This document shows positions 10,611 to 20,881 of a stretch of 64,000 nucleotides of DNA, piece after piece. A program made the translations under genes and the position numbers. Under the pieces are notes generated by a model. That model searched no databases and had not been told where the DNA came from. It saw only the letters and a list, made by a program, of their open reading frames with translations. Within the stretch, counting starts at the first letter, position 1; the number at the start of each line of letters is the position of its first letter. Where the stretch lies: NCBI RefSeq assembly GCF_988242995.1, contig NZ_OZ547043.1, one strand, 5' to 3'.

Positions 10611-10734
10611 CAGGCATTCCTCAGGTGATTGTCATTTTTGACGAAAACATGCCGATGAAATGTCATTTTCGACACTCATCGACACGCCCATCCCCAAACA
10701 GGCGTAACGCCTGCAAAACGGGCAAAGCCTCAGC

Positions 10735-15098: not shown

Positions 15099-17177
15099 AT
15101 GTCATATACACCGATGAGTGATCTCGGACAACAAGGGTTGTTCGACATCACTCGGACACTATTGCAGCAGCCCGATCTGGCCTCGCTGTGTGAGGCTCTT
15201 TCGCAACTGGTAAAGCGTTCTGCGCTCGCCGACAACGCGGCTATTGTGTTGTGGCAAGCGCAGACTCAACGTGCGTCTTATTACGCATCGCGTGAAAAAG
15301 ACACCCCCATTAAATATGAAGACGAAACTGTTCTGGCACACGGTCCGGTACGCAGCATTTTGTCGCGCCCTGATACGCTGCATTGCAGTTACGAAGAATT
15401 TTGTGAAACCTGGCCGCAGCTGGCCGCAGGTGGGCTATACCCCAAATTTGGTCACTATTGCCTGATGCCACTGGCGGCGGAAGGGCATATTTTTGGTGGC
15501 TGTGAATTTATTCGTTATGACGATCGCCCCTGGAGCGAAAAAGAGTTCAATCGTCTGCAAACATTTACGCAGATCGTTTCTGTCGTCACCGAACAAATCC
15601 AGAGCCGCGTCGTCAATAATGTCGACTATGAGTTGTTATGCCGGGAGCGCGATAACTTCCGCATCCTGGTTGCCATTACCAACGCGGTGCTTTCCCGCCT
15701 GGATATGGACGAACTGGTCAGCGAAGTCGCCAAAGAAATCCATTACTACTTCGACATTGACGATATCAGCATCGTCTTACGCAGCCACCGTAAAAACAAA
15801 CTCAACATCTACTCCACTCACTATCTTGATAAACAGCATCCCGCCCACGAACAGAGCGAAGTCGATGAAGCCGGAACCCTCACCGAACGCGTGTTCAAAA
15901 GCAAAGAGATGCTGCTGATTAATCTCCACGAGCGGGACGATTTAGCCCCCTATGAACGCATGTTGTTCGACACCTGGGGCAACCAGATTCAAACCTTGTG
16001 CCTGTTACCGCTGATGTCTGGCGACACCATGCTGGGCGTGCTGAAACTGGCGCAATGCGAAGAGAAAGTGTTTACCACTACCAATCTGAATTTACTGCGC
16101 CAGATTGCCGAACGTGTGGCAATCGCTGTCGATAACGCCCTCGCCTATCAGGAAATCCATCGTCTGAAAGAACGGCTGGTTGATGAAAACCTCGCCCTGA
16201 CCGAGCAGCTCAACAATGTTGATAGTGAATTTGGCGAGATTATTGGCCGCAGCGAAGCCATGTACAGCGTGCTTAAACAAGTTGAAATGGTGGCGCAAAG
16301 TGACAGTACCGTGCTGATCCTCGGTGAAACTGGCACGGGTAAAGAGCTGATTGCCCGTGCTATCCATAATCTCAGTGGGCGTAATAATCGCCGCATGGTC
16401 AAAATGAACTGCGCGGCGATGCCTGCCGGATTGCTGGAGAGCGATCTGTTTGGTCATGAGCGTGGGGCTTTTACCGGTGCCAGCGCCCAGCGTATCGGTC
16501 GTTTTGAACTGGCGGATAAAAGCTCCCTGTTCCTCGACGAAGTGGGCGATATGCCACTGGAGTTACAGCCGAAGTTGCTGCGTGTATTACAGGAACAGGA
16601 GTTTGAACGTCTCGGCAGCAACAAAATCATTCAGACGGACGTGCGTCTAATCGCCGCAACTAACCGCGATCTGAAAAAAATGGTCGCCGACCGTGAGTTC
16701 CGTAGCGATCTCTATTACCGCCTGAACGTATTCCCGATTCACCTGCCGCCACTACGCGAGCGTCCGGAAGATATTCCGCTGCTGGCGAAAGCCTTTACCT
16801 TCAAAATTGCCCGTCGTCTGGGGCGCAATATCGACAGCATTCCTGCCGAGACGCTGCGCACCTTGAGCAACATGGAGTGGCCGGGTAACGTACGCGAACT
16901 GGAAAACGTCATTGAGCGCGCGGTATTGCTAACACGCGGCAACGTGCTGCAGCTGTCATTGCCTGATATTGCTTTACCGGAGCCTGAAACGCCGCCTGCC
17001 GCAACGGTTGTCGCCCAGGAGGGCGAAGATGAATATCAGTTGATTGTTCGCGTGCTGAAAGAAACCAACGGCGTGGTTGCCGGGCCTAAAGGCGCTGCGC
17101 AACGTCTGGGGCTGAAACGCACGACTCTGCTGTCACGGATGAAGCGACTGGGAATTGATAAATCGGCATTGATTTAA
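15099..17177 (+). CDS. fhlA: Formate hydrogenlyase transcriptional activator (sigma-54-dependent enhancer-binding protein)
   Basis: ORF 15063..17177; start taken at MSYTPMSDLG (692 aa); AAA+ motifs GETGTGKE and GAFTGA. Confidence 0.93.
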   Translation: MSYTPMSDLGQQGLFDITRTLLQQPDLASLCEALSQLVKRSALADNAAIVLWQAQTQRASYYASREKDTPIKYEDETVLAHGPVRSILSRPDTLHCSYEEFCETWPQLAAGGLYPKFGHYCLMPLAAEGHIFGGCEFIRYDDRPWSEKEFNRLQTFTQIVSVVTEQIQSRVVNNVDYELLCRERDNFRILVAITNAVLSRLDMDELVSEVAKEIHYYFDIDDISIVLRSHRKNKLNIYSTHYLDKQHPAHEQSEVDEAGTLTERVFKSKEMLLINLHERDDLAPYERMLFDTWGNQIQTLCLLPLMSGDTMLGVLKLAQCEEKVFTTTNLNLLRQIAERVAIAVDNALAYQEIHRLKERLVDENLALTEQLNNVDSEFGEIIGRSEAMYSVLKQVEMVAQSDSTVLILGETGTGKELIARAIHNLSGRNNRRMVKMNCAAMPAGLLESDLFGHERGAFTGASAQRIGRFELADKSSLFLDEVGDMPLELQPKLLRVLQEQEFERLGSNKIIQTDVRLIAATNRDLKKMVADREFRSDLYYRLNVFPIHLPPLRERPEDIPLLAKAFTFKIARRLGRNIDSIPAETLRTLSNMEWPGNVRELENVIERAVLLTRGNVLQLSLPDIALPEPETPPAATVVAQEGEDEYQLIVRVLKETNGVVAGPKGAAQRLGLKRTTLLSRMKRLGIDKSALI

Positions 17178-17221
17178 CAGATGTGGTTATACTCGATCAA
17201 CATTCAATGAAAGGAGGCAGT

Positions 17222-17650
17222 ATGGCAGTTTCAGCAAGAAATCAATTAACCGGAACAGTTAGCGCAGTAGCAATGGGCGCTGTGAATGATGAAGTAGAAC
17301 TGACGCTGGCAGGTGGTGCAAAGCTGGTGGCAATTGTGACTCACAGCAGCCAGCAAGCGCTGGGTCTGGCGAAAGGGAAAGAAGCGATTGCCCTGATTAA
17401 AGCCCCGTGGGTAACGCTGGCAACGGAAGACTGTGGACTGAAATTCTCTGCTCGCAACCAGTTTGCTGGCAGCGTGTCGACAATCACCGAAGGAGCAGTG
17501 AACGCCACTGTCCATATCAAAACGGATGCGGGTTTTGAAATTGTGGCAGTGGTAACAAATGAAAGTCAGGATGAAATGAAACTCACCACTGGCTCGCGCG
17601 TTATTGCATTGATCAAAGCATCAGCCATCCTGATTGCCACCAAAGCGTAA
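17222..17650 (+). CDS. Molybdate/molybdenum-pterin-binding protein, tandem TOBE (Mop) domains
   Basis: ORF 17183..17650; start at ATG 17222 behind AAGGAGG; two repeated ~70-aa TOBE-like halves (ARNQLTGTV... / ARNQFAGSV...). Confidence 0.7.
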   Translation: MAVSARNQLTGTVSAVAMGAVNDEVELTLAGGAKLVAIVTHSSQQALGLAKGKEAIALIKAPWVTLATEDCGLKFSARNQFAGSVSTITEGAVNATVHIKTDAGFEIVAVVTNESQDEMKLTTGSRVIALIKASAILIATKA

Positions 17651-17661
17651 GCGCCTTATTT

Positions 17662-17698
17662 GCCGGAGAGTATGGCTCTCCGGCAGATTTATTTCTTT
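17662..17698. terminator. Bidirectional rho-independent terminator between mop-like gene and ygbA
   Basis: Hairpin GCCGGAGAG-TATGG-CTCTCCGGC followed by T-rich run; overlaps ygbA stop codon. Confidence 0.6.
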
Positions 17699-18033
17699 GG
17701 ACGATATTTTTCTGGCAACTCCGGCACCGGACGCTTGTCATCGATGAGATGACGCACGGTTAAGATCGGATGACGCCACAGCATTCGCGGCCCAGCCCAA
17801 CGCATAATCTGTTTCATCTCTTCACGCTTTGCAGGCTGGTAACAGTGCACCGGACACTGCTTACAGGCTGGTTTCTCTTCGCCGAACACACATTTATCCA
17901 GCCGCTTTTGCGCGTAAGTAAACAACGCCTCATAATGCTCCGGCTCCGCTGACGCCTGCGGGCATTTCGCTTGATAAAGATCGATCATTTTTTTAATCGT
18001 CAGTTTTTCACGAGAGATACGCTTGCCGGACAT
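17689..18033 (-). CDS. ygbA: Nitrosative-stress inducible protein YgbA
   Basis: 114-aa ORF MSGKRISREKLTIKKMIDLYQAKCP... with CxxC pairs, matching YgbA. Confidence 0.88.
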   Translation of the reverse strand: MSGKRISREKLTIKKMIDLYQAKCPQASAEPEHYEALFTYAQKRLDKCVFGEEKPACKQCPVHCYQPAKREEMKQIMRWAGPRMLWRHPILTVRHLIDDKRPVPELPEKYRPKK

Positions 18034-18050
18034 GCTGCCTCCATCTCATT

Positions 18051-18079
18051 AAGATGCATTTATATTACAACTTAATCTT
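18051..18079. promoter_or_regulatory. Candidate NsrR operator upstream of ygbA
   Basis: AAGATGCATTT half-site (perfect) plus a degenerate partner half, 18-46 nt upstream of ygbA ATG. Confidence 0.4.
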
Positions 18080-18319
18080 AAAGGGCACTATGACTCTAAA
18101 GAAGAAGGGTTAGCCAACCGATACAATTTTGCGTACTTGCTTCATAAGCATCACGCAAAAGCTGCAAAACAGCATCTTTCCCGGAATCACCATCAAGAAC
18201 TCGCCGTTCGCTTCTTCCCCTGAAATGATTAACTCCGGTATCATGTGCGCCTTATGTGATTACAACGAAAATAAAAACCATCACACCCCATTTAATATCA
18301 GGGAACCGGACATAACCCC

Positions 18320-20881
18320 ATGAGTGCAATAGAAAATTTCGATGCCCATACGCCCATGATGCAGCAATATCTCAAGCTGAAAGCCCAGCATCCCGAGATC
18401 CTGCTGTTTTACCGGATGGGTGATTTTTATGAACTGTTTTATGACGACGCAAAACGCGCGTCGCAACTGCTGGATATTTCACTGACCAAACGCGGTGCTT
18501 CGGCGGGAGAGCCGATCCCGATGGCGGGGATCCCCTACCATGCGGTGGAAAACTACCTCGCCAAACTGGTGAATCAGGGCGAGTCCGTTGCCATCTGCGA
18601 ACAAATTGGCGATCCGGCGACCAGCAAAGGTCCAGTTGAGCGCAAAGTTGTGCGTATCGTTACGCCAGGCACCATCAGCGATGAAGCCCTGTTACAAGAG
18701 CGCCAGGACAATCTGCTGGCGGCTATCTGGCAGGACAGTAAAGGTTTCGGCTACGCGACGCTGGATATCAGTTCCGGTCGTTTTCGCCTGAGCGAACCGG
18801 CTGACCGGGAAACGATGGCGGCAGAACTGCAACGCACTAATCCGGCGGAACTGCTATATGCAGAAGATTTTGCTGAGATGTCGCTGATTGAAGGTCGTCG
18901 CGGTCTGCGCCGTCGTCCGCTGTGGGAGTTTGAAATCGACACCGCGCGCCAGCAGTTGAATCTGCAATTTGGCACCCGCGATCTGGTCGGTTTTGGCGTC
19001 GAGAACGCGCCGCGCGGACTTTGTGCTGCCGGTTGTCTGTTGCAGTATGCGAAAGATACCCAACGTACGACTCTGCCGCATATTCGTTCTATCACTATGG
19101 AACGTGAGCAGGACAGCATCATTATGGATGCCGCGACGCGTCGTAACCTGGAAATTACCCAGAACCTGGCGGGCGGTGCGGAAAACACGCTGGCTTCAGT
19201 GCTCGACTGCACTGTAACGCCGATGGGTAGTCGTATGCTGAAACGCTGGCTGCATATGCCAGTGCGCGATACCCGCGTGTTGCTTGAGCGCCAGCAAACT
19301 ATTGGCGCATTGCAGGATTTCACCGCCGAGCTACAGCCGGTGCTGCGTCAGGTCGGCGACCTGGAACGTATTCTGGCGCGTCTGGCTTTACGAACTGCTC
19401 GCCCACGCGATCTGGCCCGTATGCGTCACGCTTTCCAGCAACTGCCGGAGCTGCGTGCGCAGTTAGAAAATGTCGATAGCGCTCCGGTACAGGCGCTACG
19501 TGAAAAAATGGGCGAGTTTGCCGAGCTGCGCGATCTGCTGGAGCGGGCAATCATCGACACACCGCCAGTGCTGGTACGCGACGGTGGTGTTATCGCATCG
19601 GGCTATAACGAAGAGCTGGATGAGTGGCGCGCGCTGGCTGACGGCGCGACCGATTATCTGGAGCGTCTGGAAGTCCGCGAGCGTGAACGTACTGGCCTGG
19701 ACACGCTGAAAGTCGGCTTTAACGCGGTTCATGGTTATTACATTCAGATCAGCCGTGGACAAAGCCATCTGGCACCCATCAACTACATGCGTCGCCAGAC
19801 GCTGAAAAACGCCGAGCGCTACATCATTCCAGAGCTAAAAGAGTACGAAGATAAAGTTCTCACCTCAAAAGGCAAAGCACTGGCACTGGAAAAACAACTT
19901 TATGAAGAGCTGTTCGACCTGCTGTTGCCGCATCTGGAAGCGTTGCAACAGAGCGCGAGCGCGCTGGCGGAACTTGATGTGCTGGTTAACCTGGCGGAAC
20001 GGGCCTATACCCTGAACTACACCTGCCCGACCTTCATTGATAAACCGGGTATTCGCATCACCGAAGGTCGCCATCCGGTGGTTGAACAGGTACTGAACGA
20101 GCCATTTATCGCCAACCCGCTGAACCTGTCGCCGCAGCGTCGCATGTTGATCATTACCGGTCCGAATATGGGCGGTAAAAGTACCTATATGCGCCAGACC
20201 GCACTGATTGCGCTGATGGCCTACATCGGCAGCTATGTACCGGCACAAAAAGTCGAGATTGGACCTATCGACCGTATCTTCACCCGCGTAGGGGCAGCGG
20301 ATGATCTGGCATCCGGGCGTTCAACCTTTATGGTGGAGATGACCGAAACCGCCAATATTCTGCATAACGCCACCGAGTACAGTCTGGTGCTGATGGATGA
20401 GATTGGGCGCGGGACGTCCACTTACGATGGTCTGTCGCTGGCGTGGGCGTGCGCGGAAAATCTGGCGAATAAGATTAAAGCGTTGACGTTGTTTGCCACC
20501 CACTATTTCGAGCTGACCCAGTTACCGGAGAAAATGGAAGGCGTCGCCAACGTGCATCTCGATGCACTGGAGCACGGCGACACCATTGCCTTTATGCACA
20601 GCGTGCAGGATGGCGCGGCGAGCAAAAGCTACGGCCTGGCGGTTGCAGCTCTGGCGGGCGTGCCAAAAGAGGTTATTAAGCGCGCACGGCAAAAACTGCG
20701 TGAGCTGGAAAGCATTTCGCCGAACGCCGCCGCGACACAGGTCGATGGCACGCAGATGTCGCTGCTTTCAGTGCCGGAAGAAACCTCGCCAGCGGTCGAA
20801 GCACTGGAAAATCTCGACCCGGATTCACTGACTCCGCGTCAGGCGCTGGAATGGATTTATCGCTTGAAGAGTCTGGTGTAA
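18320..20881 (+). CDS. mutS: DNA mismatch repair protein MutS
   Basis: 853-aa ORF; [25 protein letters not shown]...; Walker [10 protein letters not shown]. Confidence 0.97.

Follow-up and report, generated by a model that had tools for sequence, protein, structure and literature searches.

The ygbA-mutS locus

The window (the whole 64-kb stretch of DNA analysed here) is E. coli sequence, and its positions 17150-18400 (1251 bp) are 100% identical to strain GF60 and are matched by 5420 of 5426 complete E. coli genomes. Positions 18034-18319 correspond exactly to the 286-bp intergenic region between the divergently oriented genes ygbA and mutS. The gene nsrR itself lies outside the window and is present, at full length and at least 95% identity, in 5425 of the 5426 complete E. 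coli genomes. The features to which we refer below are the following.

17689-18033, minus strand: ygbA coding sequence, the regulated gene (ORF of 114 aa; PGAP annotation; Pfam PF11756 YgbA_NO, E = 5e-41)
18038-18042, minus strand: ygbA Shine-Dalgarno sequence GGAGG, read off the sequence and GGAGG-like in many orthologues
18051-18061, minus strand: promoter-proximal NsrR half-site, AAGATGCATTT on the plus strand and AAATGCATCTT in the ygbA sense, the same as both halves of the ytfE operator
18055 +/- 2 nt, minus strand: predicted ygbA transcription start, derived from the position of the -10 hexamer, implying a 5' UTR of ~22 nt and an operator that extends from about -18 to +5
18062, minus strand: central spacer base of the 11-1-11 repeat, also the last T of the putative -10 hexamer in the ygbA sense
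18062-18067, minus strand: putative ygbA -10 hexamer TAATAT (site positions 7-12 in the ygbA sense), from cross-species conservation
18063-18073, minus strand: promoter-distal, degenerate NsrR half-site, TATTACAACTT on the plus strand and AAGTTGTAATA in the ygbA sense
18085-18090, minus strand: putative weak ygbA -35 hexamer TAGTGC (general form nTGnnn in the species compared), separated from the -10 hexamer by 17 bp, from conservation
18239-18244 (-10) and 18246-18251 (start), plus strand: mutS -10 hexamer TATCAT and transcription start, the start mapped from K-12 data
18320-20881, plus strand: mutS (ORF; PGAP annotation)

An Rfam scan of positions 17600-18500 at E <= 1 found no structured RNA, and terminator-like hairpins numbered 3 in the region scanned, compared to 0.8 expected. 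On the far side of ygbA, between fhlA and ygbA, the window carries an additional gene (17222-17650, plus strand) for a 142-aa double-TOBE (molybdopterin-binding, Mop-like) protein (Pfam PF03459, E = 9e-35), which was named a modE-like regulator by Lerminiaux et al. (2020). This gene is missing in K-12, where the gap between fhlA and ygbA is 36 bp; in E. coli it is carried by about 1888 of 5420 genomes, and among loci from other species by 13 of 80; where it is present, the C-terminus of YgbA is 3 aa shorter (114 vs 117 aa). A strong terminator-like hairpin (17658-17688), with a 14-pair stem followed by a T-run, lies exactly between the double-TOBE gene, which ends at 17650, and the stop codon of ygbA at 17689. 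Since the two genes are convergent, this hairpin may serve as a bidirectional terminator for both.

A 23-bp NsrR-type inverted repeat lies upstream of ygbA

The first-pass annotation had proposed a perfect NsrR half-site with a degenerate partner, 18-46 nt upstream of the ygbA start. The perfect half was readily confirmed: AAGATGCATTT at 18051-18061 (plus strand) starts 18 nt upstream of the ygbA ATG (18033, minus strand) and agrees with the half-site consensus AAnATGCATTT at 11/11 positions. It is the single exact copy on both strands of the 64 kb, with 0.06 expected and at least one copy in 6 of 100 dinucleotide shuffles, whereas the number of copies with at most one mismatch (3 found vs 1.7 expected in the window) was unremarkable. 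The degenerate partner was likewise present. After a 1-bp spacer, TATTACAACTT at 18063-18073 has as its reverse complement AAGTTGTAATA, which agrees with the proximal half at 7/11 positions. Together the two halves form a 23-bp inverted repeat of 11-1-11 architecture (18051-18073) that covers 18-40 nt upstream of the ygbA ATG; the near boundary of 18 nt was therefore correct and the far boundary of 46 nt was not.

We scored the window with a palindromic weight matrix built from 16 distinct ChIP-seq-positive CFT073 23-mers (Mehta et al., 2015, Table 4), from which ygbA was excluded; the training sites had themselves been picked with a palindromic matrix. The 23-mer at 18051-18073 ranked first among all sites on the two strands of the window, with 23.6 bits against the window background and 22.4 bits against a uniform background, compared to 17.1 bits for the runner-up in the window and 15.7 bits for the best of 40 window shuffles. 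It outscored 14 of the 16 training sites, and its proximal half (18051-18061) was the top half-site weight-matrix match in the window (15.9 bits). A scan of this kind with the NsrR motif was the check that the first-pass annotation had suggested, and it put the proposed site at the top of the window.

The runner-up lies in the hycA-hycB intergenic region at 10646-10668, 36-58 nt upstream of hycB, and its sequence, AACATGCCGATGAAATGTCATTT, is that of the published CFT073 'hycB' NsrR site in reverse complement; this site is a member of the training set, so its matrix score (~17 bits) is circular. In CFT073 the hycB site was among the strongest ChIP-seq peaks (Mehta et al., 2015). The same 64 kb thus holds a second site that is likewise NsrR-type and 11-1-11, but unlike ygbA, hycB falls under NO: its expression decreases, not increases, under NO-generating conditions in the CFT073 study of NsrR and NO.

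The repeat is the published ygbA NsrR operator

The repeat at 18051-18073 is the already described NsrR operator of ygbA, and as such a known feature. Mehta et al. (2015, Table 4) give AAGGTGCATTTATATTACAACTT as the predicted CFT073 ygbA NsrR site, from which the window 23-mer differs solely by a G to A change at position 4. The window operator shares its locus, its position relative to ygbA and its 23-bp 11-1-11 architecture with the ygbA NsrR site of K-12 and CFT073, and the differences are allelic only: it agrees with the CFT073 site at 22/23 bases (position 4 is A in the window and G in CFT073) and with the K-12 allele at 21/23 (positions 7 and 20 are C and A in the window and both T in K-12).

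The statement of the first-pass annotation that ygbA is a known NsrR-regulated, NO-responsive gene is supported by this published CFT073 site and by the wider record. Regulation of ygbA by NsrR is attributed to Bodenmiller and Spiro (2006), and binding of the K-12 ygbA promoter in ChIP-chip to Partridge et al. (2009), both as cited by Mehta et al. (2015). Rodionov et al. (2005) noted ygbA as an NsrR target via a personal communication, and in a Salmonella Typhimurium nsrR mutant ygbA mRNA was up 31.8-fold. In CFT073, ygbA was among the most induced genes under nitrate/NO-generating conditions; ChIP-seq in the same strain gave no peak at ygbA, which the authors regarded as a probable false negative (Mehta et al., 2015).

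We also compared the operator within Escherichia, where it occurs as four alleles that vary only at plus-strand positions 4 (A/G), 7 (C/T) and 20 (A/T). The motif has some of its lowest information content at positions 4 and 20, position 7 alternates only between its two accepted bases, C and T, and all four alleles scored 20.5-22.4 bits with the matrix; the window, K-12 and CFT073 alleles are predicted from their sequences to be of equivalent affinity. The window allele, which O157:H7 and E. whittamii also have, was present in 681 of the 5426 complete genomes, and the K-12 allele in 2111. The CFT073-type allele occurs in about 1090 genomes, an approximate count drawn from gapped 97% matches only, as the flanks differ in that lineage. 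Among eight Escherichia sequences, 13% of operator positions were variable, compared to 35% of those in either flank and 42% of mid-intergenic positions.

The operator is conserved upstream of ygbA across species

For a phylogenetic footprint we sampled one genome per species, giving 80 ygbA loci from Enterobacteriaceae and relatives and 66 unique site sequences; the 80 species share descent, and the counts below are therefore not independent events. The best matrix match in the 300 nt upstream of ygbA lay 12-22 nt before the ATG in 80/80 loci, most commonly at a distance of 18 nt (33 loci), and in 79 of the 80 this promoter site was also the best match of the full 3.3-kb locus. The orthologous sites had a median score of 18.9 bits and reached at least 12 bits in 76 of the 80 loci. 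Over the 80 species, information content averaged 1.40 bits per position within the site, compared to 0.24 in the upstream and 0.38 in the downstream flank. The ygbA-sense consensus of the orthologous sites is AAggtGTAttATaaATGCAtCTT, in which the proximal core ATGCAnCTT is near-invariant over the 66 unique sites, as are the outer AA (positions 1-2) and the G (position 6) of the distal half (65-66/66).

One of the sampled loci, L083 (CACSKA010000005.1), is labelled Chryseobacterium sp. 18061 and shows an Enterobacteriaceae-type fhlA-ygbA arrangement, a YgbA that is 82% identical, and an intact NsrR site. The locus is very similar to L053 (Citrobacter sp. 18056), which comes from the same study, and the assembly is probably mislabelled or contaminated.

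The degenerate half-site seems to serve also as the ygbA -10 hexamer

Site positions 7-12, in the ygbA sense, read TAnnnT in 66/66 unique orthologous sites and TAnnAT in 65/66, with TATTAT, TAAAAT, TAGAAT, TAATAT and others as hexamer variants. These bases depart from those of the NsrR training set. Position 7 is T in 66/66 ygbA sites, whereas it is C in 19 and T in 10 of the 32 training half-orientations; position 11 is A in 65/66 ygbA sites vs T in 28/32 training half-orientations; and position 12, the spacer, is T in 66/66 ygbA sites vs A/C/G/T = 7/9/9/7 in training. TAnnnT occurred at these positions in only 2 of the 32 training half-orientations. Positions 7, 11 and 12 all fit a sigma-70 -10 hexamer and are not accounted for by the preference of NsrR. 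Furthermore, a ttG motif (G at 1.5 bits) is conserved at -17 to -15 from the start of the site in a flank that is otherwise unconserved. On the basis of the conserved TAnnAT and the ttG 17 bp upstream, we assigned a -10 hexamer to 18062-18067 and a weak -35 hexamer to 18085-18090.

A simple sigma-70 consensus scan reported no promoter in the region, and the E. coli -35 sequence assigned here, TAGTGC, is a poor one. Our full-text literature search returned no experimental ygbA start site, and the SMRT-Cappable-seq supplement lists the mutS start only. Judged by the conserved positions, the operator probably overlaps the ygbA -10 hexamer and start site, and the distal half appears to be degenerate because it doubles as the -10 hexamer. 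The ytfE operator AAGATGCATTTAAAATGCATCTT, the strongest site of the E. coli genome, provides a comparison: its proximal half is identical to that of ygbA and its 11-1-11 spacing is the same, but it is a near-perfect palindrome, whereas the distal half of ygbA is held instead to TAnnAT, which we interpret as the embedded -10.

The off-consensus bases of the inner distal half, with A instead of T at position 11, also allow a different reading, in which NsrR contacts the perfect proximal 11-bp half only and the partner is just the -10 region without protein contact; evidence cited by Mehta et al. (2015) indicates that a single 11-bp motif can serve as an NsrR site. However, the AA...G of the distal half (positions 1, 2 and 6) precedes the -10 hexamer, in a stretch on which a sigma-70 promoter makes no strong demand, and yet these bases are conserved in 65-66 of the 66 sites and mirror proximal positions 22, 23 and 18 (TT, C). 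In addition, the score of the full 23-mer falls in the upper range of the ChIP-positive sites. We therefore consider contact with the proximal half alone unlikely. The near-invariance of the outer AA...G, outside the hexamer and mirroring the proximal half, argues that both halves contact NsrR.

The operator follows ygbA and not mutS

The first-pass annotation had also pointed out that the site shares its intergenic region with the mutS promoter. The mutS start was placed 69 nt before the ATG by K-12 SMRT-Cappable-seq (coordinate 2857024, equal to window position 18251), and Chen and Gottesman (2017) used a 74-nt mutS leader (start at window position 18246). Positions 18216-18251, which span the mutS -10 hexamer and start, were invariant in the eight Escherichia sequences. 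The operator centre at 18062 is thus 184-189 bp upstream of the mutS start. Of the 80 species, no more than 24 have mutS within 1.5 kb of ygbA, while the distance between operator and ygbA is kept in all; in other genera, sitABCD and SPI-1 stand between ygbA and mutS.

It could be supposed that in Escherichia NsrR acts from the ygbA operator on the divergent mutS promoter as well, for instance by promoter interference or DNA topology, which would link NO stress to mismatch repair; if this were true, nitric oxide would tune mismatch-repair capacity and mutation rate. Both promoters do lie within one 286-bp intergenic region, but the operator centre is 184-189 bp from the mutS start, and the spacing of the operator is constant relative to ygbA whether or not mutS is nearby. 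Moreover, mutS is nowhere mentioned in the main text of the CFT073 study of NsrR and NO, and the known control of mutS is post-transcriptional, through Hfq, ArcZ and SdsR (Chen and Gottesman, 2017). We regard such an effect on mutS as very improbable. That the operator follows ygbA irrespective of the upstream gene argues against a regulatory meaning of the shared ygbA-mutS region, which looks like a matter of Escherichia genome organisation in which proximity is incidental and a regulatory link to mutS is unsupported. The remark on the shared region is thus true in the geographical sense only, with the mutS start some 180-200 bp away and adjacency in 24 of 80 species.

We made several further observations in the mutS-proximal part of the region. 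The mutS leader (18252-18319; 12% variable across Escherichia) contains the published Hfq-binding (AAN)3 motif AATAAAAAC at window positions 18270-18278, -50 to -42, exactly like K-12. PGAP annotates a 44-aa 'hypothetical protein' at 18110-18244 (minus strand), whose ATG is the complement of the CAT in the mutS -10 hexamer TATCAT. This ORF has no Pfam match, is absent from the MG1655 reference annotation, and shows Escherichia substitutions spread evenly over codon positions 1/2/3 (43, 32, 45); it is probably not a gene. Finally, at 18161-18173 the variable mid-intergenic part has a weak hairpin of the terminator type on the minus strand, the ygbA strand, with GCTGTTTTGCAGC running into TTTTGCG. 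From its sequence and position it could stop leftward read-through ahead of the ygbA promoter, or it could be due to chance.

The least probable reading of all is that an AT-rich core promoter happens to look like an NsrR site: AT-rich promoter DNA does yield more matrix matches, 2000 shuffles of the 300-nt upstream regions (median 2.3 bits, 99th percentile 11.8) reached a maximum of 18.5 bits, a separate set of 80 upstream-region shuffles gave one outlier at 20.3 bits, and the exact 11-mer arose in 6% of window shuffles, but 12 bits were reached by only 0.9% of shuffles vs 76/80 real loci, the ATGCAnCTT half downstream of the -10, for which a promoter has no need, is near-invariant over 80 species while its flanks are randomised, and NsrR regulation of ygbA is reported for Salmonella and, second-hand, for E. 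coli. Chance resemblance is effectively refuted by the conservation data.

Discussion

NsrR is a [4Fe-4S] repressor of the Rrf2 family, whose cluster is nitrosylated by NO. We conclude with high confidence that the 23-bp repeat at 18051-18073 is the NsrR operator at the ygbA promoter, with both halves probably bound by a dimer, acting on ygbA only and probably by promoter occlusion. This conclusion draws on the identity with the published site, the strength of the motif and its conservation across species, and on the K-12, CFT073 and Salmonella literature for repression and the response to NO.

In the mechanism that we propose, an NsrR dimer would sit on both halves of the operator, of which the proximal one is a perfect match to the consensus. 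The distal half would retain the outer, NsrR-specific AA...G, while its inner bases and the spacer would serve as the ygbA -10 hexamer TAATAT. Given an operator at about -18 to +5, repression would occur by promoter occlusion, with bound NsrR covering this interval and blocking RNA polymerase. Once NO had nitrosylated its cluster, NsrR would be released and ygbA transcribed. The site would act on ygbA alone, mutS being an incidental upstream neighbour in Escherichia.

To the known operator our analysis makes modest, descriptive additions, namely the overlap of the degenerate half with the putative -10 hexamer and the breadth of conservation. The ygbA promoter of this strain is predicted to be intact, NO-responsive and of the ordinary type, which matters chiefly for correct annotation. 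Altogether, the operator goes along with ygbA across the Enterobacteriaceae, whatever the upstream neighbour of the gene.
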